DNA of 64,000 bases from Halobacteriovoraceae bacterium (GTDB taxonomy: Bacteria; Bdellovibrionota; Bacteriovoracia; Bacteriovoracales; Bacteriovoracaceae): assembly GCA_963719505.1 (NCBI GenBank), contig CAVRCF010000001.1, positions 800,001 to 864,000 on the forward strand. Reading direction: 5' to 3'. The notes beneath the pieces are model-generated. The model did not search any database, was not told the DNA's origin, and saw nothing but the letters and a program-made list of their open reading frames with translations. Positions 535-39,228 of the stretch are shown here, in pieces; within the stretch, counting starts at the first letter, position 1, and each line of letters starts with the position of its first letter. Position numbers and translations under genes: made by a program.

Positions 535-1508
535 TGAAAATTTACCTAGATTATGAACATTCAGAAGATCCTTGGGGGGGAATTAATAGTTTCTTTAGAG
601 GTTTCCATAAAGAACTAACATCAAGTTCTCAAAGGGCAAAACTAATAAATTCTAAATCTAAGGCTGATATCGTTCTCTTAGGTGCAGCTTCTAGAGGGAT
701 CGAGAAAGCTGTCACTGGTGATGAGATTGAAAGAGAATATCAATTAAGAGAGAAACTATTAAATAAAATTTTAAGTCGTCATCGATATAAACTTATTCAT
801 CGTTTGGACGGTCTGAGGGCTAGTTATGGGGCTGGATTTATACCAAATGATAGGGAACAACTTAATATAGCTGAACTCTCAGATGCGATAATATTCCAAA
901 GTAAAGAGAGTAAAAATGTTTTTGAAAAATATGGTCTAAACATTTCAAAAGTACAGTCTGAAATCATTTATAATGGAGCGGACCAAAGTATTTTTTTCCC
1001 TTGTATTTCTAAAAAACCTTCATTAAAGAAGAAAGTTTTAGCTACAAGCTGGTCAACAAACCTGAGGAAAGGTTTCAAAAAGATTGCTCAATTATCAAGA
1101 AGACAGGACATAGATGTTTTATTTGCTGGTCAATGGAATCAAGAGGTAGATTCAGAAAATGTTTGTCTTTTGGGTACAAAAAATTACAAGGAGTTATCCT
1201 ATTTATATAGAGAGGTTAATTTTTTTCTACATGCAGCTGAAAATGACCCTTGTCCCAATGTTGTTCTCGAGGCTCTCTCTTCTGGATTACCAATTTTGTT
1301 TCACCCCTCTGGAGGAACGAAAGAGTTATCTGAAAGATATGGTGAATCTATAGGATCAAACTCGGTAGATGAGCTTTTTAATGCTTTAGATAATATAATT
1401 ATTAACGAAGAAAAAATAAGAGAAAATATTATTCAGAATTTAAATAATTTTTCATTTAAAAAATGTTTTAACCAGTACTTAGATTTCTTTGAAAAACAGC
1501 TGATTTAG
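531..1508 (+). CDS. Glycosyltransferase family 4 (GT-B)
   Basis: WGGINSF N-terminal loop; IIYNGAD; DPCPNVVLEALSSGLPI motif. Confidence 0.85.
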   Translation: MMKIYLDYEHSEDPWGGINSFFRGFHKELTSSSQRAKLINSKSKADIVLLGAASRGIEKAVTGDEIEREYQLREKLLNKILSRHRYKLIHRLDGLRASYGAGFIPNDREQLNIAELSDAIIFQSKESKNVFEKYGLNISKVQSEIIYNGADQSIFFPCISKKPSLKKKVLATSWSTNLRKGFKKIAQLSRRQDIDVLFAGQWNQEVDSENVCLLGTKNYKELSYLYREVNFFLHAAENDPCPNVVLEALSSGLPILFHPSGGTKELSERYGESIGSNSVDELFNALDNIIINEEKIRENIIQNLNNFSFKKCFNQYLDFFEKQLI

Positions 1509-1517
1509 GAGAAAAAG

Positions 1518-2096
1518 ATGCTTCAAAAGTTAAAAAAACTTTTAAATAAAAGAAAAGTCTTTATTGATTGTGGTGCAAATGTTGGTGAGATTTCAGCAAG
1601 GTATCTAGATTTAGGATATACAGTAATTGCTTTTGAGCCTAACCCCAGTGCCTTTGAGGTTTTGTTGAATAAATTTGAAGATAATAAAAAAATAACGCTC
1701 ATCAATAAAGCTGTCTGGCATAAAAATACAACTTTAAAGCTTTATCTACATGAGAATAGCGACGAAGATGAGGTGTATTGGTCTCAGGGGTCTTCGTTAC
1801 TTTCATTTAAGGGTAATGTACTTGAGAGTAAGTTTGTAGAGGTCGAAGTTATCGACCTTTTCGAATTTATTAAAAATAGCGAATATGACTTCATTGATAC
1901 GATTAAAATCGATATAGAGGGTGCGGAAGTAGAAGTTCTTGAGAGATTGATAGAGGAAAAACTATATACTAAATTTGGAGAAATCTTTGTGGAGACTCAC
2001 GACCATAAAATCCCAGAGCTCAAAGAGTCTACAGACAAGATTCGAAATAGAGTTACTAATCTTAGAATCAAAAATATAGATTTGGATTGGGTCTAA
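1518..2096 (+). CDS. FkbM-family SAM-dependent methyltransferase
   Basis: FIDCGANVG, AFEPNP and IKIDIEGAE motifs. Confidence 0.9.
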   Translation: MLQKLKKLLNKRKVFIDCGANVGEISARYLDLGYTVIAFEPNPSAFEVLLNKFEDNKKITLINKAVWHKNTTLKLYLHENSDEDEVYWSQGSSLLSFKGNVLESKFVEVEVIDLFEFIKNSEYDFIDTIKIDIEGAEVEVLERLIEEKLYTKFGEIFVETHDHKIPELKESTDKIRNRVTNLRIKNIDLDWV

Positions 2097-3110
2097 ATGA
2101 AGTATAATGTCGCTATCCCAAGCCTCGAAACAACTGGAATTGGAGGCCCTATATCATTCCTAAAAAACTTCAGAGAATTTTCTAATAAAAATGGAACTAA
2201 ATTTTCAAAAAATAGCAAGAATATTTTCTTTCCCATTGAGCACCCTATTCATGATTTAAAAAAAAGAAGAGAGATGGGAGGATGTATTATCCAAAGGCTT
2301 GATGGTATATACTACCCTGAGAAGCATGGTGAAATGTTCGTTACTCTGAATGAAAATATAAAAGAAATCTACAGAAATTATTCATCGCACATCATCTTCC
2401 AAAGTGAATATTCAAAAAAGCAATGTTTTGCCATGTTTGGACCAGTCACTAAATACTCAATTATTCACAACGGGGCAAATTTGGAAGTCTTTTATCCACT
2501 ACAGGATAAACCCAAAAATAAAACAACTCAATTTATTACAACCGGCAACTTTAGAAACTTGGATATGCTAGAGCCAGTTATTAAAGCACTTGATATCCTT
2601 AGTGATAGCTATCAATTTGAATTGCAGATCTTGGGACCAGTAGTTAATGATGATCTTAAAAAATATTTAGATCGAGAGTATATTCGTTATTTAGGTCAGA
2701 GTACATCGCAGTTAGAAATTGCAGGTTATCTACGGACAGCAGATGCATTTATCTATTCTCACCTAAATCCTCCATGTCCAAACTCTGTCATAGAGGCAAT
2801 CTCAACCGGACTTCCCGTTATAGGGTTTGATAGTGGATCAATGTCGGAGTTATGTCATTTTTCGAAAGATTTGCTTGCTGATGTTGAAACAAAAATATTT
2901 CAAGAATATCTCGATTTTGATGAAAAAGAGTTAGCTATAGTTATAAAAAACTACTTAGACTCGCCAAGTTATTTTAATAAGATAGCATTAGAAAACCGTA
3001 GTTTTTTTTCAATTGAAAAATGCGTGAAATCATATTTTGAAATTTTTAGTAATGCTGGACTTAAAAGAGAGTCTTTTATAGATAAAATTAGGAGATACAT
3101 AAATGGATAA
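2097..3110 (+). CDS. Glycosyltransferase family 4, paralogue of 531..1508
   Basis: RLDG, IIFQS, IIHNGA and PPCPNSVIEAISTGLPV motifs shared with 531..1508. Confidence 0.85.
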   Translation: MKYNVAIPSLETTGIGGPISFLKNFREFSNKNGTKFSKNSKNIFFPIEHPIHDLKKRREMGGCIIQRLDGIYYPEKHGEMFVTLNENIKEIYRNYSSHIIFQSEYSKKQCFAMFGPVTKYSIIHNGANLEVFYPLQDKPKNKTTQFITTGNFRNLDMLEPVIKALDILSDSYQFELQILGPVVNDDLKKYLDREYIRYLGQSTSQLEIAGYLRTADAFIYSHLNPPCPNSVIEAISTGLPVIGFDSGSMSELCHFSKDLLADVETKIFQEYLDFDEKELAIVIKNYLDSPSYFNKIALENRSFFSIEKCVKSYFEIFSNAGLKRESFIDKIRRYING

Positions 3111-3753
3111 GCCCACTATGCATTGCCAGTCAGAAATTTTAAGTGATATTGGATATGAGTCCGTTTTAACGGATGATTTGATGTTGAAGTGGTATCGAGA
3201 TTATTACTCAACCTCAAAGCATTTGTTGACGCTGTATTCTATTGCAAATGGTCTCTGCGCAAAAAAGATCTTAGAAGTCGGATTTGGAAGAAGCTCATTT
3301 GTGTTAGCAAAGTCAGCGAAAGAAAATAATGGAAAATTATTCGCTTGCGATATGCGTGACTTTTCATATCTATTTAATGACGTCGAGAAAAAATATACCA
3401 ATTTCATTATCGGCTTGTCAGATAAAGCTTGGAACTCTTTAGAGGACGAGTCTTTAGATTTTGCATTTTTAGACTATTTCTCAGGAGAAGATATCTCAGA
3501 AGAATTTGTCATGAATGAGATTGAAAAATGTCTAAAGAAGATGAAGGGAAACAGCGTGATCGCAATTCATGACGTCTTTGATAGTCGATATAAAGTAGGC
3601 GAAGTTTTGAAAAAGATGTCTAGATCATGGAAGTTTAAGAATAAAATTTCTTTCTCATCAATAACTTATAATTACGGACTAGGGATCTTGACAGTTTCTC
3701 CTAAAGGGAAAAAAAATATCTTACAGGACGAGCAAAAAAAGAAGCTAGAATAG
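3103..3753 (+). CDS. Class I SAM-dependent methyltransferase (Methyltransf_24-like)
   Basis: ILEVGFGRSS, LDFAFLD and VIAIHD motifs. Confidence 0.75.
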   Translation: MDKPTMHCQSEILSDIGYESVLTDDLMLKWYRDYYSTSKHLLTLYSIANGLCAKKILEVGFGRSSFVLAKSAKENNGKLFACDMRDFSYLFNDVEKKYTNFIIGLSDKAWNSLEDESLDFAFLDYFSGEDISEEFVMNEIEKCLKKMKGNSVIAIHDVFDSRYKVGEVLKKMSRSWKFKNKISFSSITYNYGLGILTVSPKGKKNILQDEQKKKLE

Positions 3754-4560
3754 ATTTTTAACTCTAAATATAGTTTTTCTTTTTAAACGAGAGAGACTAC
3801 ATCTGAAGGGATTTATGGCAATAACTTTTCCACCATTAGCCCTTATTTTCGCTGTTAAGGAGTGTTCATTCAATATGCACAAGGCTTTAAATCTTAAAGT
3901 TTTAGCCGACTTAATTGTTAAATCTTCCGAGCGGTACCACTTTTTTGGCATTTTCATAATGGGAACGCTTTTAATGAGCCACTCGTCTATCAATTCTATA
4001 TAATTCTTACTAAAGAAATTGTTGTGATTATTTATCAGCTGATCGGATCCATCAATATCCTTAATCTTATAGGAAACAATGGACTCTACGCATTGAAGAG
4101 CTTTCTTATTGCAAAGAAAAAAGTTTGTTCTAATCCAGCTATTAGATTTTAGATTTCTAATTCTAACATCTTCAATATAAGCGTCTGCGTAACCTGATAT
4201 GAAAGGAGAATTGATTTTCTCCAGCCTTTTCAGATTAAATTTATTAATAAAGTCGGCAGAAAAGTTTCTGTGAAAAGAATCGTTTGCCAGTATTATTATA
4301 TCTTGCTCATTAATAGACTCTGACAAAATAGTATAACCTTTTTGCCATGCGCTAAATTCATGAGAACTGTTGTCTCCATTAATTAAAGTCTTATTTCCTG
4401 CGAGCTGATCTTTGAATTCGTGATCTACTGAGTTATCTAAAATTAAAAAATTTTGGGGAATTATTGAATTCTTTTCTAAGAACCTATTTATGACATTAAT
4501 TGAGCTATTGTGATGTTTACTTCCAAATTGAACAAGAATGACGTGGTAATTTATATCCAT
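3745..4560 (-). CDS. Hypothetical polysaccharide-biosynthesis protein (GT-A-like/rhamnan-synthesis-like)
   Basis: 271-aa ORF; LILDN, GDNSSHEFSAWQKG and IILANDSF segments; locus context. Confidence 0.5.
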   Translation of the reverse strand: MDINYHVILVQFGSKHHNSSINVINRFLEKNSIIPQNFLILDNSVDHEFKDQLAGNKTLINGDNSSHEFSAWQKGYTILSESINEQDIIILANDSFHRNFSADFINKFNLKRLEKINSPFISGYADAYIEDVRIRNLKSNSWIRTNFFLCNKKALQCVESIVSYKIKDIDGSDQLINNHNNFFSKNYIELIDEWLIKSVPIMKMPKKWYRSEDLTIKSAKTLRFKALCILNEHSLTAKIRANGGKVIAINPFRCSLSRLKRKTIFRVKNLF

Positions 4561-4662
4561 TTATTGCGCCCATTGTTAGAGTCCAATCTGAGCTAATATT
4601 TTAGCCAAATTGTTAGATTTAGGCTATACATTATGTCTAATAATAAACAAGTAGGGGGAGAT

Positions 4663-5733
4663 TTGAAAGTTTTAATAACTGGTGGAGCAGGTTTTATTGG
4701 TTCTGCTGTCGTAAGACATATTATCAAAAATACAGACAACACAGTTTTAAATATTGATAAGCTCACCTATGCAGGGAACTTGGACTCACTAGTAGGAGTT
4801 GAAGAAAGCGAAAAGTATAAATTCTCTAAGACTGATATTTGTGACTTTAATAACCTAAAACAAGTATTCAATGATTTTAAGCCTGATCTTGTAATGCATC
4901 TTGCGGCTGAAAGTCATGTCGATAGATCAATAGATGGAGCATCTGAATTTATTCAGACAAATATAATTGGAACTTTCAATTTACTGGAAATTTCAAAAGA
5001 GTACTTCAACGGTCTCTCTGATGAAAAAAAATCAGTCTTCAAGTTTCATCATATATCCACAGATGAAGTGTATGGCGACTTAGATAATATGACTGACCTT
5101 TTTACTGAGGAGACATCCTATGCTCCAAGTAGCCCATACTCTGCTTCAAAAGCATCTTCTGACCATTTAGTTAGAGCTTGGAGAAGAACTTATGGTCTTC
5201 CTACCGTTGTAACAAACTGTTCTAATAACTATGGACCTTACCACTTTCCTGAAAAACTAATTCCTTTAGTCATCTTAAATGCTATTTCCGGTAAAAGCCT
5301 ACCTGTGTATGGTGATGGAAAGCAAATCAGAGATTGGTTATATGTAGAAGATCACGCTCGGGCTCTCTATAAGGTACTCACTGAAGGGACAGTAGGAGAG
5401 ACTTATAACATCGGTGGCCACAATGAAAAAACTAACTTGGATGTTGTTCATACAATTTGCGATCTCCTTGATGATTTAGTGCCAAATAAACCAGATGGAG
5501 TTACAAACTTTCGAGACCTAATAACTTTTGTTACAGATAGACCAGGACACGATCAGAGGTACGCAATAGATGCTTCTAAAATACAAAAAAAATTAGGTTG
5601 GTCCCCAGAGGAAACTTTTGAAACAGGAATTAAGAAAACAGTTGTTTGGTATCTTGAAAATAGGAATTGGTGGGAAAAAGTTTTAAATGGTTCGTACAAA
5701 AATGAAAGACTTGGTCTTTCTGGAGGGAAATAA
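4663..5733 (+). CDS. rfbB: dTDP-glucose 4,6-dehydratase
   Basis: [30 protein letters not shown] and YSASK motifs; likely TTG start at 4663 after a G-rich SD-like run (ORF track begins at 4633). Confidence 0.97.
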
Positions 5734-6605
5734 TGAAAGGTATTGTATTAGCAGGAGGTTCTGGGACACGATTGTATCCTATTACTAAGGGCGTCTCTAA
5801 GCAGCTTCTTCCGGTTTATGATAAACCAATGATTTATTATCCACTTTCGACTCTTATGCTTGCTGGAATTAAAGATATTCTTATCATTACTACTCCAGAA
5901 GACAATGAAAGCTTTAAGAGGCTTTTAGGTGATGGCTCTGATTTTGGTATTAACCTAAAATATGCCGTTCAAGATGCTCCAAACGGTTTAGCTGAAGCCT
6001 TTATTATTGGAGAAGACTTTATCGGTGGAGACTCTTGTTGCCTTGTATTGGGCGACAATATTTACTACGGACACCATTTCTCAGACACATTAATTAATGC
6101 TTTTAATCAAAAGGAAGGGGCTACTGTTTTTGGTTACCATGTGAGAGACCCAGAAAGATTTGGAGTTGTTGAGTTCGATAAAAACTTCAAAGCACTTTCA
6201 ATTGAAGAAAAACCTGAAAATCCTAAGTCTAATTGGGCCGTAACTGGATTATATTTTTACGACAACAAAGTGGTTGAATATGCAAAAAAGATAAAACCTT
6301 CTCACCGAGGAGAACTGGAGATAACAAGTATTAATCAGCTTTATCTTGAAGCGGAAACGTTAAAGGTTGAGCTCTTGGGAAGAGGTTTTGCATGGCTTGA
6401 CACGGGAACTCATGAGAGTTTGAGTGATGCATCAACATTTATTCAGACTATAGAGAACAGACAGGGGTTAAAGGTAGCTTGCTTGGAAGAGATCGCCTGG
6501 TCAAAAGGTTGGTTGAGTGATGATGAACTTAGAGAAAAAGGGAATCTCATGGCAAAAAATGAATATGGTCAATACCTTTTACAACTACTAAAGAGTCATA
6601 GATAA
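5733..6605 (+). CDS. rfbA: Glucose-1-phosphate thymidylyltransferase
   Basis: [32 protein letters not shown] and WLDTGT motifs. Confidence 0.97.
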
Positions 6606-23026: not shown

Positions 23027-26008
23027 ATGAAAAAGTTAATAACGACAAGTCTCATTATGCTGAGTGTATTCAGCTGTGGACAAAAGGGCGATTCAGGTCA
23101 ATCTGATTCCGTGCTTACTCAAAATCTAGAAGAGGCATCAGGCAACAAACCAAACTATTCACATCTTGATCTTTATAGTTTTAGTAATAATCTAAAAAAG
23201 CCACTTAAAGCTGATCTCAGATACATGCAGTATCAAGATCGAAAGAGTAAGGGCGTTGAGAGTCTTAATCATATCTCTCCTGAAGGAGGAATAAAAGATG
23301 TCTCGATTAGTGGTCTTAAAGTTATTATCAAAAAAGATGACCCCCAAGGCTTATATAAAAAGCTCTATCAAAGATCTGATCTTAAAAGCCTCTCAATTGA
23401 TGCCGAAACTATTGAGATTCATGATCCCATTCATCTCGCACAAACGGATATTACTCTCACAGCGAAAAAAATTATCTTCATAGGAGCGGGCTCTATTAAT
23501 ACGACACCTCTTGATTCAATAGCTCTGAGAGCACCTCAGTTTAAAGATGGTGTCGATGGCTTAGATGCAGGATCTATTTACGTGCATGCCGATGAGATTG
23601 TAGAGGATAAGAAGAGCGTGAGATTTATTGCCAATGGTGGTAAAGGTCAGGGAGCCGGACCTGGACAAGCTGGAAGAAGAGGGACCAATGCCGTTTTAAA
23701 ACACGGATACTACAAGTACACAAGTCATGTCTGTCATCCAGGAACAAATACGAATATTTGTTTTGATGAAGTAGAGCGAGGGAGTCCTTCTGGAAATGGC
23801 CAAAATGCCATTGTTGGTGGGAAGCCAGGAGAGGGAGGACAAGCCGGGAAGATATATATAAATAAGAACTTTAGTATCGCCGCAACTCAAACCGGAGGTG
23901 TGGCAGGAAACACAGATTCTTTGCGACTTGGTGGTGCTCCTGGTTCGCCGGTGACGACTTGTGCAGCAAAGTTTAAACGTAGAAGAGTGAGGTCCTATGA
24001 TTGTATAACAGCGATTGGAGGCGCTTCAGCGATGCCAATAAAGGCAAAGAGACCTTGGGCTTTTGATAAAAAAATTCAGATTAAAAGAACAAAAGCTTCT
24101 TGGATAAGTTCTGCTATTACACCTTTTCAATATAAATATATCGAGGACCTTTATAAGGCCGGTTATCTTAGTTCATCACAAAGTGAAATCTCGAGCTTAA
24201 AAAATACTATCACAAAAAATGTAACAGGAATGGAGACGAAGGCTTTGCAGCAAAAGCTTACAAAGCTATCTAATCAGATGGATATGCGACTGGATTTTTA
24301 TGGAAATAAAAAAACCTGGGTTCCAAACCTTGGCTTTGAAGTTAACTATATGCTTTTTAAAAATGAAGTAAAAAGAAATATTGAAGTTCTCTATCTGGCC
24401 AACTCTATGTCTATTGATCTTGAAAAAGAACAGATGAATATTCAAACGATTAAGGAGCTTCAAAGTGAACTCTTTGAAAATATCGATGCCGAGAAAAAAG
24501 AAATTGATAAAACAATTGATGATATCGTTGCAACCAATGAGGCGCTTGGAGAATTAAAGACGGCTGAAGAGGAATTTCACTATCAGTTAAAGGAAGTTGA
24601 AAGACAAATTAAAGCGAAGGCCAAAAGAAATATAAAAGTGCCTTTTATGGATAAAGCCGTAAAGGTTTTTGCAGCAGCTTCCAAAGTAATTCCTGTAGGA
24701 CAGCCGGCTCTTGGTGCTGTTGGGATGGGAGTTGAATTTTTCCACAATGCCACAAATGGAAGTATGAGCGCCGGTGAAATCCTTCAACAAGCTCCTTCAA
24801 TGTATGGACAATTCCAAGAACTCGACTGGAAGGCCACGACAAAAGAGATTCATGAAAAACTGGATGAACTGTCTTTATCTCATCTTGAGGGAATGGACTC
24901 TTGGGAAGAGAGAGGAAAGCATTTAAAAAAGATCGTTGATTTTTCAAGCCCAGTTTTTAAAGCTGTTGCCAGTCAGATGAGTCAGTGGAAAGAGATGGAG
25001 GGAGGATCAAAGCTTGATCGTGAAATCGCAAAAATAAAAAGCTCTCATAAAATGTACAGAAAAGTTATTGAAGCTCTAGAGAACTTAAATTTAAAGAAGA
25101 CACTTTTTAAAGACCGAGTGATCGATTTTCAAAGCTCTATGTCAGATGCTTTGACATCTATTACTGTTAATTACTCAGCACTGGCCTATTCATTTGAGGA
25201 TATTGAAACCATTAGTATTGAGAGAAAAAGAGATTATATGAGTGCACTTGATGAAGTTAAAAGCCTCGCCTCAAAATCTCTTCACTATTATGGGTATCTT
25301 CTTGAAAAGTCTTATGAGTATCGCCTGCTAAAGGACTATAAAAGTAAATTTAACCTAGATATTTTAACGGATGAGATTTTAAATTTAATTAAAACCGGAG
25401 CTGGAAATAGCGTGAATAATATTGAGTCTCTTGAAGTGATCTATAATGCTAAGCTGACTGAGATTACCAACGAACTTTTACACGTTTACAATGATAGTAG
25501 CGCCGCTCAAACCATGTCTAAAGAAGTCAGCCTCACTGTGGAGGAGATCAACTCCCTCAATAATGGTCAAGCGATCTATCTGGATACCACACAAGCAAAC
25601 TTCTTTGGAGAAGATAAAGAGAATATTAGGCTGCTTGACCTAGAGGTAGAGTCTATAAAAAGTAGTGGTACTCATGCACAAATTGAAGTTTCAATGAGTC
25701 ATAGTGGAAGATCGGTGATCGATCAAAACTCTGTAAACTTTGTCTTTGACTTTCATCATCCGAAAACAAATTCTGCTCTCAACTGGAGATCGGTCTATAA
25801 CCCTTGGGCAAATACCTATTATCACTCTGAAATAAGTGCTAATGATGAGTCCCTTCTTAGAAATCTGCTAGATTTGGACTCAGGAAATAGTCAGCTCTTT
25901 ATCAGTCCTGGAGCGAGGACCTTTATCAAAGTCGAGCTCAATAAGAGCGAACAAACAAAGATTAACTCGATGCGTATTAGGATGGATTATTCATACAGAA
26001 TTAAGTAA
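23027..26008 (+). CDS. Large lipoprotein (993 aa) with Gly-rich repeats, long coiled coils and a central hydrophobic hairpin
   Basis: Lipobox VFS-C17; GGxG repeats; heptad-like regions; strong SD (AAAGGGG). Confidence 0.75.
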   Translation: MKKLITTSLIMLSVFSCGQKGDSGQSDSVLTQNLEEASGNKPNYSHLDLYSFSNNLKKPLKADLRYMQYQDRKSKGVESLNHISPEGGIKDVSISGLKVIIKKDDPQGLYKKLYQRSDLKSLSIDAETIEIHDPIHLAQTDITLTAKKIIFIGAGSINTTPLDSIALRAPQFKDGVDGLDAGSIYVHADEIVEDKKSVRFIANGGKGQGAGPGQAGRRGTNAVLKHGYYKYTSHVCHPGTNTNICFDEVERGSPSGNGQNAIVGGKPGEGGQAGKIYINKNFSIAATQTGGVAGNTDSLRLGGAPGSPVTTCAAKFKRRRVRSYDCITAIGGASAMPIKAKRPWAFDKKIQIKRTKASWISSAITPFQYKYIEDLYKAGYLSSSQSEISSLKNTITKNVTGMETKALQQKLTKLSNQMDMRLDFYGNKKTWVPNLGFEVNYMLFKNEVKRNIEVLYLANSMSIDLEKEQMNIQTIKELQSELFENIDAEKKEIDKTIDDIVATNEALGELKTAEEEFHYQLKEVERQIKAKAKRNIKVPFMDKAVKVFAAASKVIPVGQPALGAVGMGVEFFHNATNGSMSAGEILQQAPSMYGQFQELDWKATTKEIHEKLDELSLSHLEGMDSWEERGKHLKKIVDFSSPVFKAVASQMSQWKEMEGGSKLDREIAKIKSSHKMYRKVIEALENLNLKKTLFKDRVIDFQSSMSDALTSITVNYSALAYSFEDIETISIERKRDYMSALDEVKSLASKSLHYYGYLLEKSYEYRLLKDYKSKFNLDILTDEILNLIKTGAGNSVNNIESLEVIYNAKLTEITNELLHVYNDSSAAQTMSKEVSLTVEEINSLNNGQAIYLDTTQANFFGEDKENIRLLDLEVESIKSSGTHAQIEVSMSHSGRSVIDQNSVNFVFDFHHPKTNSALNWRSVYNPWANTYYHSEISANDESLLRNLLDLDSGNSQLFISPGARTFIKVELNKSEQTKINSMRIRMDYSYRIK

Positions 26009-29123: not shown

Positions 29124-30323
29124 ATGAAAATTTTAATTTTACTTATTCCCTTTTTCGCTTTTGGATCTGTTACTCAGAACAATTATCCCTGGGCAATACA
29201 TTGTTAAGGGGTCTCAGTTTATTGTCGGTCAAAAGCTTCGAGATCTTGGAGACGATGTCTTTTTAATTAAAACCAAAGATAAGATTAAAGTTGATAATAT
29301 AAATGTCTTTTATAATTTCCAATATAGTGGAGAGTTTAAAGAATCAAAGATTGAATCCACTAAAAGTAATGATGCTCTATTGGGGGATCAAAAACACCAT
29401 CTTATGATCAAATCCCTTGAGGCTTGGAAGATTAGTCAGGGCAGTAAGAAAGATTATTGTTGCTGTTACGGATAATGAATTTGAAATGGATCACGATGAT
29501 TTAAAACATGCGTGGTGGAAAAATGAAAAAGAGATCCCTGGCAATGGAATCGATGACGATCAAAATGGATACGTTGACGATATTAATGGATGGGATTTTG
29601 TCACACAAGATAACGATCCCAATGTTGAAGAGGGACCAACTCATGGAACTCATGTCTCTGGAATTATTGCCGCTTCTTTAAATAATAAAATTGGCGTGGC
29701 CGGAATCGCACCAAATGTTTCGATTATGCCCCTTCGTTGGTACGGGGATGAGAGAAGTTGGAATACCGCTTTGGTGGTTGAGACTTATCGCTATGCCATT
29801 GAAAATGGAGCGAATATTATTAATACAAGTTATAATATCGATCCTTTAGTTGAGGATCCCGCTTATCTTAGACGTGATTCAATACGCGAAAAAAAATGAA
29901 GTCATTATTTTTAATTCTGCTGGAAATGATTATAAAAAAGATCCTCCCAGAGGTGTTGTCAAAGATATTGTTTTGGTTTGCTCTGTCAGAAGTTCTAAAG
30001 AGAGACATTTTGATAAGAAATCGAATTTTTCAAATTATGGTTCTGAAATAGATGTCTGCGCTCCAGGTGATCCTATTCTTTCAACAGTTCAGCGACGCTA
30101 TCTTGGGGAGAGTCGCTACGGTGAGCTTGAAGGCACCTCAATGTCCTCTCCAGTTGCTGCGGCAGTGGCGGCCTTAATTTGGTCTCACTTTCCAGAACTC
30201 ACGGCGTCTGGGGTGGTGAGGAAACTTTTAGATTCAGCTGATAATATAGATGAAAAAAATAAACGTAAATATAAAGGAATGCTTGGAAGCGGAAGAGTGA
30301 ATGCTCTGGAAGCTTTGAGATAG
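29124..30323 (+). pseudogene. S8 subtilase interrupted by three +1 frameshifts
   Basis: Signal peptide from ATG 29124 (MKILILLIPFFAFG); catalytic VAVTD, HGTHVSG and GTSMSSP, plus NSAGN; the reading frame shifts near 29175, 29450 and 29868. Confidence 0.85.
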
Positions 30324-34483: not shown

Positions 34484-36361
34484 ATGAATTTAACTGCTGT
34501 GTTACTATTTCTGATTTCCTTTTCAATATTTGCAAAAGGGCTTCCCGCAAGCTTTGGGGGAAAAACACGTAACGCGTGTGAGATTGCCTTTGTTAAAGTT
34601 CTCAACGGAAAAATTCCAGCTCAAAAATCAGGTTTAGCTTCTCTCAACTATTGGGATGAGAGATTTGATCCAAAAATGGTGATGGATGATGTTCAGGCCC
34701 TCCCAGATAATGAATCAAGGCTTTTATTTTTAAAAGAACTTCAAAAGCTTGTTCATAAAGACCAAACATTCGTGGATAATGTCGCATCCACTGCAAGTCT
34801 TATGGTGGAGCGAAAACTCCTTAACTTATCAGATATTAAAAAAGTCTTTCTTTCTCCAAAATTTAATAATGTTACTTACTTTTACTCAAAATCCACGAAA
34901 ACTCTAACGGGCAAGCTGGATGTTGATACGGATAAGCTAGGTGTCATCAATGAAATTGTGAGTAAAGCAAAGCTTTCAAAAAATCGGGCTAAAGAATATA
35001 CAGACATGATGTTGCAAAGTAATAGAACGATTGAAGATTTCGAGCTAGCACTTGAGCACGGCTTTAAGCTCAGAGACGATATTCGCTCTCAAGAGCAGCT
35101 TAGGCACTATCTGGAGTTTTTAGATAATGCAAAAGCGGCCAGAGTAAAAAATGGTATGAAGCAAATTGAAAAAATTTATGATTTTAATTACTCACAGCGC
35201 TTTTCAGTTATTGATGAGGTGCTGCCTGTTTATAAGAAATTCCTTGGTCAAAAATCTCGTGTTAACTCTTTTGAAAAAAGACGAGTGGCAGAGATTGAAG
35301 AGGGCTTAAAAATGCAGATGAACAAAGAGCATATTAAAGAGCTCGATGATCTTGTTGCAAGAAAGGCGAAAGGGGAAGAAGTAGATCCGGAAAAGGTAGC
35401 TGCTCTTCGTAAAAAAATAAATGATAATGAGTTGCCAAAAAATCTCAAAAAGAGAGCTCTCTCCCAGGCAAAAGGTGAGAAGTCTATCTTTAGAAAACTC
35501 ATGAGTGGATGTGGCTCTGGTGGGGGAAAGCGTCTGGCCGGAGCTAAGAAAAAGTTTATACGTTTTAAATTTGCTGTGGGACTCGTTGGAACACCAATCT
35601 TTTACTACATGAAAAACAAAGATAAAATTGACGTTGATGATTATTGGTATGAAAAACTTGGGTACGAGTGGACGGCAAGCATCGTCTTTAGTTACTTCGG
35701 TGGAAAGCTAGTGACTGGAAACGGAGGCTTTCTCAATAAGTACCTCAAAGGATTTTTTATCTTTCGAGGAATGGATGGGGTAAGTTCACTCTCTTACGAT
35801 ACGCTTTTTGGTAAAAGTAAGCATATTCGAAAATTTATGCAAATCTATCGAGATGATCTGCCTGAAAATGAAATTGAAGCTGAGTTTAATAAGCTTTTAG
35901 AGAGTCCTACATTTGAAAAAGACGTCCGTGGGCTTTTGGCCTACCTCGATAAAAAGACAAAAGAGAGAAATACAAAGTTCTTCATCGATAAATACTTCAA
36001 TACCTCAGCTTATAATTCTCTAGAAAGTGATCGTATCACCCAAGAAGATCTTGAAACCGAAGAGGGTAAAGAGGTGATGATGGAATTATTAGCAGAGAGA
36101 ATGTATATGGAGAGCATGGGGAATTCACCTTACTTCTCTACCGGTAATAGTGGTGGGGATCGGTGGAGCTTCTATGCTGCTCGAGCAACATTTTGGGATC
36201 TAAAAAGTCTGGCTTTCAATCTAGCTTTGTTTCAAATCATGTGTAAAGAGCCCTTTGGAAAAGTGGGGTCTTGGGGTGCTGTCATTGCTCTTTACTTAGG
36301 AGATCAATGGCTTTCAGGTAACTTGACCTACTCATGGCGTAGAGACGCTATAAATCAGTAG
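34484..36361 (+). CDS. Hypothetical secreted/membrane protein (625 aa)
   Basis: Signal peptide; helical charged middle region; several C-terminal hydrophobic helices. Confidence 0.7.
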   Translation: MNLTAVLLFLISFSIFAKGLPASFGGKTRNACEIAFVKVLNGKIPAQKSGLASLNYWDERFDPKMVMDDVQALPDNESRLLFLKELQKLVHKDQTFVDNVASTASLMVERKLLNLSDIKKVFLSPKFNNVTYFYSKSTKTLTGKLDVDTDKLGVINEIVSKAKLSKNRAKEYTDMMLQSNRTIEDFELALEHGFKLRDDIRSQEQLRHYLEFLDNAKAARVKNGMKQIEKIYDFNYSQRFSVIDEVLPVYKKFLGQKSRVNSFEKRRVAEIEEGLKMQMNKEHIKELDDLVARKAKGEEVDPEKVAALRKKINDNELPKNLKKRALSQAKGEKSIFRKLMSGCGSGGGKRLAGAKKKFIRFKFAVGLVGTPIFYYMKNKDKIDVDDYWYEKLGYEWTASIVFSYFGGKLVTGNGGFLNKYLKGFFIFRGMDGVSSLSYDTLFGKSKHIRKFMQIYRDDLPENEIEAEFNKLLESPTFEKDVRGLLAYLDKKTKERNTKFFIDKYFNTSAYNSLESDRITQEDLETEEGKEVMMELLAERMYMESMGNSPYFSTGNSGGDRWSFYAARATFWDLKSLAFNLALFQIMCKEPFGKVGSWGAVIALYLGDQWLSGNLTYSWRRDAINQ

Positions 36362-36470: not shown

Positions 36471-37142
36471 ATGAATGATTTTGAAGTTAAATATGTTAAT
36501 GTTAATTTGAAAGCGCCTATTGCTAAGAAATGGCTTGATTTAAACCTCATCCCTGATCCCAAATATCCAGGAACGATTATTTCCAGTATTTACTTTGATA
36601 CAAAAGACTTTAAGTATTTAGATGAAAAAACTGAGAGTGATCATGTTAAATCCAAGTTTCGAATAAGATGGTACGAAACCTTAGACAAAAAAGAACCAAG
36701 TTCAGTTAGTTTTTTAGAATTCAAACATAAAGTTGGTGAAAATCGTTTTAAAAAAAGAATTCAAGTCAGTAATGATTTTTTCTCAAAGCCTCTAGAGTCC
36801 TTAGACTTTTTGAAGAGTTTAGACGAGCTTCGACTCTTTAATGGAAATATCTTGGAGCATATTTATCCTAGTTTTATCGTAAGCTATACTCGATATAGAT
36901 ATATTATCCCTAATACTGATATTCGACTTTGTATTGACTACAATATAAACGTTCCAAAACTGAATTCTCGTTTACTTCCTATGAAAATTAAGAAAAAGTA
37001 TTTATCACAATGTGTATTTGAATTAAAAGGGGAGAGTGCTATTTTGCCATCTGCTTTGCGTAATATTGAACAGCTTGGCTTTGAGAAAAATTCTTTTTCA
37101 AAATACGAGAGATGTTTCGAAGAATTAATAAATAATATTTAG
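36471..37142 (+). CDS. VTC-domain (polyphosphate polymerase-like, CYTH/TTM fold) protein
   Basis: FEVKY, ISSIYFDT, KFRIRWY, FLEFKHK, YTRYRY, RLCID, FELKG and FSKY motifs. Confidence 0.85.
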   Translation: MNDFEVKYVNVNLKAPIAKKWLDLNLIPDPKYPGTIISSIYFDTKDFKYLDEKTESDHVKSKFRIRWYETLDKKEPSSVSFLEFKHKVGENRFKKRIQVSNDFFSKPLESLDFLKSLDELRLFNGNILEHIYPSFIVSYTRYRYIIPNTDIRLCIDYNINVPKLNSRLLPMKIKKKYLSQCVFELKGESAILPSALRNIEQLGFEKNSFSKYERCFEELINNI

Positions 37143-37150
37143 GAGAAAAA

Positions 37151-37846
37151 ATGGAATCATATTTTAATTTAAAAATTTTAAGTAATACAGGTATTCAAAA
37201 AATGGCCGACATCGGTCTTCTACCTTTTTTCTTATTATTACTAGCATCGCTTATTTCTTCCCTTTTTATTTCTCATCTCTATTTAAGGTTCTGTGGAAGT
37301 AAAGGAACAGGATCAACTCTTCATAGAGCTTTTCCACTTCTGGGTGTCGCTATTACGTCCATTTTTGTGAGTCTGCAGTTCTCTGTTCCTCTATCTCTTG
37401 GGCTTTTAGGGGCGCTATCAATTGTAAGGTTTAGAACACCAATTAAGGATCCGGAAGAAGTAGGCTTTATCCTTCTTGTGATTGCTTCAAGTCTAACTTG
37501 TGCAACGTTCAATCTGCCCTTTCTCATTCTTATTTTTGTCGTTTCTATATTGGGACTTATCATTTTAAAGTTTGACAAAAAATATTTCAAGAGGACGAAG
37601 AATACGGGGATGATCATCGTGAATCTTCAATCATTGGCATACAGTAAAAATAGTACACAAGTAATGACAGTTCTCGAGTCTAAAGCACAAAATCTAAAGA
37701 TTGATAGTATTGTAGAAGATGATGAACACACAACTCTATCTTACACTTTTGGAGCGATGGAGAACCATAGTTTTGCCTCTCTTAAAGAAGAACTATATGC
37801 GCTAGATAGTTCCTCAAAGATAAATATCTTTTTTAATAAACAGTGA
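37151..37846 (+). CDS. DUF4956 membrane protein (MgtC-like TM domain plus ACT-like C-terminus)
   Basis: LSLGLLGALSIVRFRTPIKDPEE signature; 4-5 TM helices. Confidence 0.88.
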   Translation: MESYFNLKILSNTGIQKMADIGLLPFFLLLLASLISSLFISHLYLRFCGSKGTGSTLHRAFPLLGVAITSIFVSLQFSVPLSLGLLGALSIVRFRTPIKDPEEVGFILLVIASSLTCATFNLPFLILIFVVSILGLIILKFDKKYFKRTKNTGMIIVNLQSLAYSKNSTQVMTVLESKAQNLKIDSIVEDDEHTTLSYTFGAMENHSFASLKEELYALDSSSKINIFFNKQ

Positions 37847-39228
37847 TCAATTTAAAGACTATTGGCTTTTTCATTCTTATCGTTCTATGTGGACTCATCC
37901 CCAAGATTTTAAATGGGCAAAAGAAGTATAAAAAAGCGCTTGATATTTACTACGCGCAATCTGAAGATGCCCAGTCGGTTTATACAGGTAAAGTCCGTGA
38001 TGTTTTTGATCCTCTGGATGAGGCATACCAAATCTCTTCAAGTCTCAAAAATCTCATTGATGTCAAACGTCCTCTGTTTAGTGAAGATTCATCTGTCTGG
38101 CCTATTATATCTTTGTGGGTAGATCCAAGAGATCTTTACTCGGAAGAGCGAGGGATCATTACTCATGGGTATAAAAAAGGACGCCTTTGGGAGAGAGCAA
38201 GTTTTGTTGACTACTTTAAAGATAATGAAAATGTCTTTAAAACTTTTGCCGGCCTGAGGCAGCATGGAGGTACAAGTCGTAATGAATCTCAAAAGATAAA
38301 AAGTTTTCGCGTGTACTTCAAACAAAAATATGGGGCAAGTGAGTTTATAAATAGTGAAAAAATAAGTTTAAGCTCCAAAGCTAAAATCAAAAGACTTGTT
38401 ATCAAAAGAGATATCTATCTTCATTTTGGAAACTCATTTTCATTTTTCTTTATCAACTCTCTAGGGGGGCTTGCCCCCAAGGTTGAGCTTGTAAAACTTT
38501 ATATCAACGGAGAGTTTTACGCCTATCATATGATGACAGAACATTTAAGTCGTGAACAGTTAAAATTTTACTGGGGACATGAAGATTTTCTTTTCGCAAA
38601 AATTAAAGGAGATCAAGATATCCATTCGCGTATCCTTTATAAAGACCTAAGGTCAAAGCTAGAGACAAGTCGTGATATTAGTTTTGAATATGTCGATAGT
38701 AGAGTTGATATGGACACTGTTATGGCATCTTTACTAGTAATCATGTACACGGGGATGACTGACTGGGCCCAAGGGGTTTATACGAAAGATATAAAAAGAG
38801 ATTCAAAGTGGAAGCTAATCTCATGGGATTTTGACAGAGCTTTTTTTCCTGTGAATGGGGAGAGTGTGAGATCTGGGATGCAGTTTGATTCAGAGATGAA
38901 AAGTGTTGGTCTTGGGATGGATATGAAGAAAGGTCAAATTAGGTGGTCTATTTTTAACCGGCTCATCAAAAAGGATGTACGATTTAGAGAATATTTTTCA
39001 AATCTTGTAGATAATCTTTTTGATAAAATTCTAAAAGGTGACTCATATAAAGCATTTTTGGCAAAAGCTGAAAAGCTAACACTATCTGCAAACGATCCCA
39101 AAATGAATAGCGACCTAAAAAGAATAAAAGATTTTATTAAGTTTAGAAAAAAAACACTTTGTGACGATCTCAAAGTGCGGGTTAATCTTGTACCTAAGAC
39201 ATGTCTTCGAGAGGCTTTGACGAGGTAG
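37843..39228 (+). CDS. CotH-family exported/membrane-anchored kinase
   Basis: N-terminal TM; WERAS, HGGTSR, KSFRVYF, LYINGEFY and KWKLISWDFDRAF motifs. Confidence 0.82.
   Translation: MINLKTIGFFILIVLCGLIPKILNGQKKYKKALDIYYAQSEDAQSVYTGKVRDVFDPLDEAYQISSSLKNLIDVKRPLFSEDSSVWPIISLWVDPRDLYSEERGIITHGYKKGRLWERASFVDYFKDNENVFKTFAGLRQHGGTSRNESQKIKSFRVYFKQKYGASEFINSEKISLSSKAKIKRLVIKRDIYLHFGNSFSFFFINSLGGLAPKVELVKLYINGEFYAYHMMTEHLSREQLKFYWGHEDFLFAKIKGDQDIHSRILYKDLRSKLETSRDISFEYVDSRVDMDTVMASLLVIMYTGMTDWAQGVYTKDIKRDSKWKLISWDFDRAFFPVNGESVRSGMQFDSEMKSVGLGMDMKKGQIRWSIFNRLIKKDVRFREYFSNLVDNLFDKILKGDSYKAFLAKAEKLTLSANDPKMNSDLKRIKDFIKFRKKTLCDDLKVRVNLVPKTCLREALTR

Follow-up and report, generated by a model that had tools for sequence, protein, structure and literature searches.

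Three adjacent genes in a 64-kb stretch of DNA from a Halobacteriovoraceae bacterium, a marine bacterium of predatory type (GenBank assembly GCA_963719505.1, contig CAVRCF010000001.1, positions 800,001 to 864,000; hereafter the window) encode a soluble VTC protein, a DUF4956 membrane protein and a CotH-fold protein with an N-terminal hydrophobic helix. The cassette is real, and the window adds a further instance to a gene set already in print as uncharacterised; here the set stands alone in a Gram-negative genome. We propose that the trio is one case of a self-contained cassette, widespread among bacteria, that would work across the inner membrane. A Vtc4-type enzyme, soluble and cytoplasmic, would polymerise the phosphate of nucleoside triphosphates into polyphosphate at the inner membrane face, DUF4956 would serve it as partner in the membrane and most likely give the chain its way out of the cytoplasm, and a tethered CotH-fold enzyme, its catalytic domain most likely periplasmic, would act on the emerging chain, which it would either take as phosphoryl donor or transfer to a protein or glycan of the envelope. 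We give this route, from synthesis at the membrane through DUF4956 to CotH action outside, close to but short of an even chance, because of the conserved catalytic residues and the gene context; streptococcal genetics and the ambiguous topology of the window's CotH protein weaken it. Use of polyphosphate by CotH is its weakest step, and that polyphosphate serves CotH as phosphoryl donor we consider unlikely.

Results

Three coupled genes form a conserved unit

The window was scanned for open reading frames (ORFs) and their proteins were scored against Pfam at the curated gathering cut-offs, and the VTC, DUF4956 and CotH identities put forward in an original prediction from the sequence were borne out, each protein scoring above its cut-off. 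On the forward strand, the VTC gene (36471-37142, 223 amino acids) matches PF09359 (E 2.7e-21, 76.7 bits, cut-off 23), the DUF4956 gene (37151-37846, 231 amino acids) matches PF16316 (E 3.9e-13, 49.9 bits, cut-off 30.6), and the CotH gene (37843-39228, 461 amino acids, GTG start) matches PF08757 over profile positions 1-320 of 322 (E 6.4e-11, 42.8 bits, cut-off 23.8); the NCBIfam scan assigned no family to any of the three proteins. The tight coupling that had been claimed is read directly in the sequence. An 8-nucleotide gap (37143-37150) separates VTC from DUF4956, an AGGAG (37141-37145) overlaps the VTC stop codon and precedes the DUF4956 ATG, and the GTG start of CotH overlaps the TGA stop of DUF4956 in a GTGA (37843-37846), all on the forward strand; the gap and the 4-nucleotide overlap suggest that translation of the trio is coupled. 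Profile searches found one copy of each family in the window's genome (an assembly of 3.69 Mb in 5 contigs, 83.5% complete), and the named relatives of the three proteins belong to the Halobacteriovoraceae, Bacteriovoracaceae and Oligoflexia.

Linkage was examined in loci seeded by DUF4956 alone, the best 80 of 450 DUF4956 relatives in one-genome-per-species contigs, whose ORFs were searched with iterated hidden Markov models (HMMs) built from the window's own clade; being closest to the query, these loci speak for its own DUF4956 subfamily and not for PF16316 as a whole. By record title they span at least nine phyla, their lineages being Bdellovibrionota-type, Bacteroidota, Spirochaetota, Desulfobacterota, Planctomycetota, Acidobacteriota, Verrucomicrobiota/Kiritimatiellia, Actinomycetota, Pseudomonadota and others. 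VTC adjoins DUF4956 in 78 of 79 testable loci, CotH does so in 76 of 79, and both do in 74 of 78. The order VTC-DUF4956-CotH on one strand holds in 71 of the 80 loci, the remainder having VTC-DUF4956 only (4/80), a CotH gene on the opposite strand ahead of VTC-DUF4956 (2/80), DUF4956-CotH (2/80), or VTC-DUF4956 followed by CotH on the opposite strand (1/80).

Co-occurrence was also strict at the level of genomes. Among 151 evenly drawn genomes of the window's phylum, the window's genome included, DUF4956 is present in 18, VTC in 20 (all 18 with DUF4956 and two more) and CotH above cut-off in 10, every one of them among the 18. VTC lies within 4.5 kb of 20 of the 21 DUF4956 matches in this sample, the exception being on short contigs, and in 14 named control genomes VTC and DUF4956 were detected in the same three; two of the control genomes, those of Bacteroides thetaiotaomicron and Corynebacterium glutamicum, gave matches to all three families. 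Linkage of the trio is far beyond chance, and the co-occurrence that had been predicted held in both the HMM and the neighbourhood searches. An incidental adjacency of three unrelated genes, which has in its favour that a sequence scan around the trio found no promoter or terminator signal above shuffled expectation and nothing else, is refuted by the 74 of 78 loci and by this genome-level co-occurrence; with the gap and overlap also suggesting coupled translation, we regard it as scarcely credible.

None of the genes on either side of the window's trio recurs next to the trio in the other loci, so that the trio appears as a conserved, self-contained unit. The gene directly upstream (34484-36361, forward strand) encodes 625 amino acids with a signal-peptide-like N-terminus and matches no Pfam or NCBIfam family; it was considered as a further part of the cassette and rejected, having no homologue in the 80 loci. 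In Desulfobulbaceae-type loci, an extra ORF of 274-301 amino acids lies between DUF4956 and CotH (L019, 8693-9532; L038, 8697-9581), with similar ORFs in L025, L026, L028, L031, L034 and L042. It has a weak likeness to DUF4956 (E 1e-5 to 1e-51 with the iterated HMM) and no Pfam match in the two scanned.

The VTC protein resembles Vtc4 at its catalytic positions

The VTC protein contains no hydrophobic segment by the Kyte-Doolittle scale, as expected of the soluble protein that had been predicted. PF09359 is its sole Pfam match over 223 amino acids; neither an SPX domain nor a CYTH-type family was found in the scan. PDB searches with the single sequences of the three proteins and of a second-type VTC returned nothing useful. 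A profile built from 45 bacterial VTC sequences, headed by that of the window, matches residues 38-283 of the yeast Vtc4 chain 3g3q_A at E 4e-14, and a narrower VTC profile gives the same alignment in the middle part; a profile of the C-terminal 60 residues did not reach Vtc4 in the PDB search. Residue numbers in the 3g3q_A chain are 185 lower than in Vtc4, as set by R264/R266.

According to a cryo-EM preprint on the yeast enzyme, polyphosphate synthesis by Vtc4 requires K200, R264, R266, K281, Y359, R361, E426 (Mn2+), S457 and K458, and K458 is the only one of these nine residues replaced in the inactive Vtc2 and Vtc3 (bioRxiv 10.1101/2023.01.27.525886). A second yeast paper uses R264A/R266A/E426N as its catalytically dead Vtc4 control. 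In the profile alignment, Vtc4 R264, R266, K281 and Y359 correspond to R64, R66, K85 and Y139 of the window's protein, and R361, E426, S457 and K458 correspond to R141, E184, S210 and K211. Eight of the nine catalytic positions are thus kept, each of them either invariant across the 45 bacterial sequences or conserved in at least 90% of them. An E5-x-K7 motif in the first strand is invariant in 45/45 sequences and would be the likely equivalent of the ninth, K200. By these residues the VTC protein appears to be a minimal tunnel enzyme that is Vtc4-like and not Vtc2/3-like, which fits the catalytic type originally claimed for it.

These features bear on a different account of the trio, in which polyphosphate is not exported at all. 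In this regulatory, ATP-dependent scheme, the VTC protein would either hydrolyse triphosphate or nucleotides or act as a sensor, DUF4956 would be an MgtC-like regulator in the membrane that senses a small ligand through its ACT-like domain, and CotH would be an ordinary ATP-dependent protein or glycan kinase; together they would tune a surface polymer. The match to PF09359 and to no CYTH-type family goes against a hydrolase or sensor, as does the retention of the K458 equivalent, which is absent from the non-polymerising Vtc2 and Vtc3. We consider the regulatory scheme improbable; the evidence for it from DUF4956, from CotH and from streptococci is given below.

DUF4956 joins a conserved membrane core to an ACT-like domain

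DUF4956 proteins form a large family (2697 cluster representatives at E <=0.001 in a library search). The window's member has four Kyte-Doolittle hydrophobic segments and, in an AlphaFold2 model of moderate quality (predicted local distance difference test [pLDDT] 74.6, predicted template modelling score [pTM] 0.50), five helices at 23-48, 56-76, 79-93, 101-119 and 122-141, with two-residue turns at 77-78 and 120-121; the earlier count of four to five membrane segments agrees with both. A core from Q76 to I107, which includes R93-F-R-T-P-x-K99-x-P-E-E103, is invariant in 27/27 sequences from several phyla. On a positive-inside reading of the model, the Lys-rich stretch after helix 5, the C-terminal domain, the loop 45-59 and the conserved basic/acidic loop 93-103 would be cytoplasmic, and the N-terminus would be outside. 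A prediction of the complex of DUF4956 with VTC, made with alignments, gave an ipSAE (interaction prediction score from aligned errors) of 0.00 in both runs and, with no controls, weighs neither way.

The C-terminal domain (147-231) is modelled as a beta-alpha-beta-beta-alpha-beta fold of the ACT or ferredoxin-like kind, spanning residues 151-229 in the model, and it matches ACT-type and ferredoxin-like domains with Z 8-10, the C-domain of MgtC among them (7qa5, Z 8.6; 2lqj, Foldseek E 6.6e-3). An MgtC cluster is also a feature-space neighbour of DUF4956 in a protein atlas, at 0.78, which lies below the threshold and is a lead only. This likeness to the C-domain of MgtC favours a regulatory role for DUF4956; against it, MgtC (PF02308) was not detected in the protein at E <=10.

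The original prediction also cast the trio as a split VTC machine. Taken as a statement of homology, this did not hold, since DUF4956 has no match at E <=10 to DUF202, the membrane domain of VTC, and the SPX domain is lacking. DUF202 (PF02656) has no match anywhere in the window's genome, at 83.5% completeness.

Long outliers among the 150 best DUF4956 representatives carry PMT_2 and/or BPD_transp_1. In P0304 (663 amino acids) and P0329 (283 amino acids), the DUF4956 membrane part is joined to a BPD_transp_1 segment, that of an ATP-binding cassette importer permease, with a PMT_2 glycosyltransferase domain ahead of this part in P0304; these proteins may be real fusions or assembly chimeras. 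A 476-amino-acid ORF on a Vicinamibacterales contig (L055, 7236-8666) matches both VTC and DUF4956 and was a candidate natural fusion. It was rejected: the ORF has lost the VTC C-terminus, with no equivalents of E184 or of the S-K pair, and an Arg/Gly/Ala-rich stretch runs into the DUF4956 frame, which marks a frameshift, real or due to assembly error, instead of a fusion.

The CotH protein keeps both catalytic aspartates of the Bacillus kinase

The AlphaFold2 model of the CotH protein is confident (pLDDT 87.9, pTM 0.84), and its top Foldseek matches are the Bacillus cereus CotH structures 5jda and 5jd9 (E 6e-11, probability 1.00, 15% identity), with HipA, PI-kinase, CtkA and Fam20 entries as weaker, lower-ranked matches. 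In agreement with the single N-terminal membrane segment that had been predicted, the protein has one Kyte-Doolittle hydrophobic segment, at residues 1-25, modelled as a helix at 2-23. Its homologues start with the same hydrophobic helix. P0167 (316 amino acids, on a 3074-base contig) is 99% identical to the window's CotH and is a shorter form without this helix; homologues of 442-466 amino acids back the long form of 461 amino acids over P0167.

A profile of 36 CotH sequences aligns with 5jd9_A at E 9e-11, a clade-only profile reaching E 0.018 at best. The B. subtilis kinase has a catalytic D228 and a metal-binding D251 (PMC7821199), and D224 and D247 of the B. cereus 5jd9 chain lie 23 residues apart, with the same spacing. 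D307 (36/36 sequences) and D329 (34/36) of the window's family pair with D224 and D247. In addition, the family keeps a D-x-x-Q-G loop, with Q310 in 34/36 and G311 in 33/36 sequences. C440 and C454, the only cysteines of the soluble part, are invariant in 26/26 clade members, and they would fit a disulfide in an exported domain, although such a fit proves nothing.

The orientation of the helix was assessed from the charge before and after it. In sequences from other phyla, the bias is N-in/C-out in 20/28 and opposite in 0/28, a result that speaks against the cytoplasmic kinase that the regulatory scheme would allow. On these charges and its cysteines, the CotH domain is likely periplasmic.

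A second cassette links VTC and DUF4956 to export-type genes

Eight of the 18 genomes with DUF4956 in the phylum sample have no Pfam-detectable CotH, and in several of these DUF4956 and VTC are 3.1-3.9 kb apart. Four such loci were examined, three from CotH-less genomes and one from G042, which has CotH: L084 of G136 (1375-5750), L085 of G066 (946-5460), L086 of G042 (905-5530) and L087 of G106 (938-5378). All four show the same tightly packed order, namely DUF4956, an ORF of 582-593 amino acids, an ORF of 386-434 amino acids, and VTC. The first intervening ORF matches HlyD-type adaptor families in both loci scanned against Pfam and has a propeller-like part, with weak Phytase-like, DUF3616 and SdiA-regulated matches. 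The second matches the outer-membrane efflux protein (OEP) family in one scanned locus (E 6.4e-6) and has no family match in the other. Neither a CotH gene nor a further transporter gene was found in these operons. Both types of cassette occur together in G042, G133 and G056.

In envelope-spanning export sets, the inner-membrane component is a transporter. Because DUF4956 and VTC here flank HlyD-like and OEP-like genes with no other transporter, DUF4956 is a candidate exporter of the VTC product, and its role as a membrane conduit gains indirect support from the second cassette, the strongest argument at hand for such transport, which would be hard to explain in a regulatory scheme without export. 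Moreover, the pairing of VTC and DUF4956 with adaptor-like and outer-membrane-factor-like genes in place of CotH suggests an outside partner that is exchangeable, CotH being one choice.

The same loci bring in another explanation, in which polyphosphate is exported and CotH takes no part in phosphotransfer from it. Polyphosphate would then be an anionic polymer of the envelope or matrix, and CotH would receive, anchor, trim or attach the chain, or would be an ATP-using enzyme that is merely co-regulated. The 8/18 genomes with the VTC-DUF4956 pair and no Pfam-detectable CotH are as expected from this explanation, and so is an exchangeable CotH, replaced in the four loci by adaptor-like and outer-membrane-factor-like genes. 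On the other hand, both catalytic aspartates of CotH are kept, which argues for catalysis over mere binding, and extracellular polyphosphate data for carriers of the cassette were not found in the literature searched. Export with no phosphotransfer by CotH seems to us rather unlikely.

Gene neighbourhood and polyphosphate genes

The neighbours of the trio in the window (21585-51177) encode sugar-nucleotide enzymes, peptidases, QueC, an SNF2 helicase, RpoD, DnaG, a methyltransferase and flagellin. No pel-type genes turned up within ~12-15 kb in general family scans, no dedicated Pel-family search having been made. Over the 80 loci, the commonest neighbours are family-2 glycosyltransferases (21), NAD-dependent epimerase (13) and asparagine synthase (12), so that the cassette is loosely associated with surface-glycan genes; the recurrence of glycosyltransferase (21/80) and epimerase (13/80) genes also counts in favour of the tuning of a surface polymer.

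Profile searches found no match to PPK1 or PPK2 in the window's genome, which is 83.5% complete, and two matches to Ppx-GppA (L088, C1:578145-578975; L089, C5:221710-222093). Of 23 genomes sampled from this bacterial family, 16 lack PPK1, and for most of them completeness is given as 98-100%; the absence of PPK1 from the window's genome is therefore probably real. A role of the VTC cassette as a stand-in for PPK1 was considered and rejected, PPK1 being no rarer in genomes with DUF4956 (12/18) than in the phylum sample overall (95/151).

Two further features of the window lie apart from the trio. An ORF of 993 amino acids (23027-26008, forward strand) matches no Pfam family at E <=1e-4. At 29417-30323 on the forward strand are two overlapping short ORFs, the second of which (157 amino acids) matches a subtilase profile at positions 138-278 of 288 only, in its C-terminal half; the pair may represent an S8 peptidase gene that is broken or has a wrongly placed start.

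Discussion

The original prediction knew of no experimental characterisation of the triad, a statement that is out of date. In Whitfield et al. (bioRxiv 10.1101/768473), the accessory genes that adjoin pel loci of Gram-positive bacteria include cotH, DUF4956, DUF4832 and a polyphosphate-polymerase gene, and Lepp et al. place VTC-domain, membrane and CotH genes in one locus of Clostridium perfringens. In Streptococcus intermedius all three genes (SIR_1592-1594) have been deleted, and the authors of this 2025 mBio paper (PMC12345266) describe less aggregation in sputum medium for the DUF4956 and CotH mutants, assign to the DUF4956 protein four membrane segments and an ACT domain, with which the ACT-like domain modelled here agrees, and take CotH to be secreted. 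They state that the arrangement was not found outside pel loci; the 80 loci show the trio to be widespread, with variable neighbours.

Several observations weigh against the three-step route from VTC through DUF4956 to CotH. The S. intermedius study reports that Pel goes up in the DUF4956 mutant and down in the CotH mutant, and it is not reported that deletion of the VTC gene SIR_1593 changed anything (PMC12345266). A simple linear pathway does not fit these phenotypes, and opposite shifts in Pel from the DUF4956 and CotH knock-outs, with no reported effect of the VTC knock-out, count in favour of a regulatory function of the trio. No biochemical assay of a bacterial VTC, DUF4956 or CotH member was found in the literature searched. 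For the VTC protein, Vtc4 K200 (chain residue 15) falls outside the aligned range, which begins at chain residue 38. In DUF4956, a search of all Pfam at E <=10 returned PF16316 only, with neither DUF202 nor MgtC (PF02308), and the membrane part matched no solved fold in Foldseek and VIA searches, nearly all listed rows covering 147-231 only; fusion of VTC to DUF4956 was absent among the 150 best DUF4956 representatives. In CotH, the catalytic-loop Asn of 5jd9 (D-x-x-x-x-N) is not conserved, its position being V312 here in a variable column. The replacement of the kinase loop by D-x-x-Q-G would suit a CotH protein that handles an exported chain and does not use it for phosphotransfer.

Topology belongs among the same difficulties. 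The flanks of the window's CotH helix carry a charge of 0 on the N side and +5 on the C side, the wrong way round for export, and its own clade is ambiguous, at 3 against 3 with 2 ties. An outward orientation is therefore not secure here, and these charges would allow a cytoplasmic domain of the sort that an ATP-dependent kinase requires. The periplasm-facing CotH of the original prediction is thus supported in the wider family (20/28 N-in/C-out) and not borne out by the window protein's own charges.

The Gram-positive loci also bear on what an exported chain might do. Pel is a cationic polymer. That the Gram-positive set adjoins Pel loci (10.1101/768473, PMC12345266) would accord with export of polyphosphate as a matrix component, without phosphotransfer by CotH.

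The most specific version of the three-step route, in which a Vtc4-type polymerase feeds a non-homologous DUF4956 conduit and a far-side CotH uses polyphosphate instead of ATP, appears doubtful to us. If true, the periplasm or cell surface would have a phosphorylation system that does not depend on ATP, and its outside module, either CotH or an adaptor plus outer-membrane channel, would be interchangeable. In the polyphosphate reviews consulted, the polymerase of eukaryotes is of the VTC type and that of prokaryotes of the PPK type, a picture that would change if the bacterial VTC enzyme is active. The cassette offers a concrete three-protein system for testing how phosphoryl donors are supplied to extracytoplasmic kinase-fold enzymes. 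Because streptococcal Pel biofilm loci are described as holding the same genes, two of them affecting aggregation, the chemistry of the cassette bears on the biology of the biofilm matrix. The value of this window lies in a cassette that stands alone, outside any pel locus, in a genome without detected PPK1 or PPK2.

Among known systems, MgtC/SapB resembles DUF4956 in its layout, several helices making up a small membrane domain and a cytoplasmic ACT-like domain coming after it, and the C-domains superpose, whereas DUF4956 has no PF02308 match at E <=10. The Bacillus CotH spore-coat kinase shares the fold of the window's CotH, in which the equivalents of D228 and D251 are kept; the window's protein differs in its 15% identity, its N-terminal membrane helix, its D-x-x-Q-G loop with no catalytic-loop Asn, and the lack of a spore context. 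The second cassette has the VTC and DUF4956 families in common with that of the window and occurs in the same phylum, but two envelope-spanning export-type genes replace CotH and DUF4956 comes first and VTC last. The Gram-positive pel accessory set comprises the same three families in one contiguous set, as in the window, where in contrast the trio lies by itself amid housekeeping genes (queC, SNF2 helicase, rpoD, dnaG) in a Gram-negative lineage. Finally, the eukaryotic VTC complex (yeast Vtc4/Vtc3 or Vtc2/Vtc1; 3g3q, 7ytj, 8i6v) has a homologous catalytic domain and would share with the cassette a common logic, a cytoplasmic tunnel enzyme beside a membrane protein. It possesses SPX domains and DUF202-type three-helix channel domains, both of which the cassette of the window lacks; the window has instead, as membrane partner, a DUF4956 protein that is encoded separately and not detectably related to DUF202, and the cassette adds a CotH-fold enzyme to the pair.

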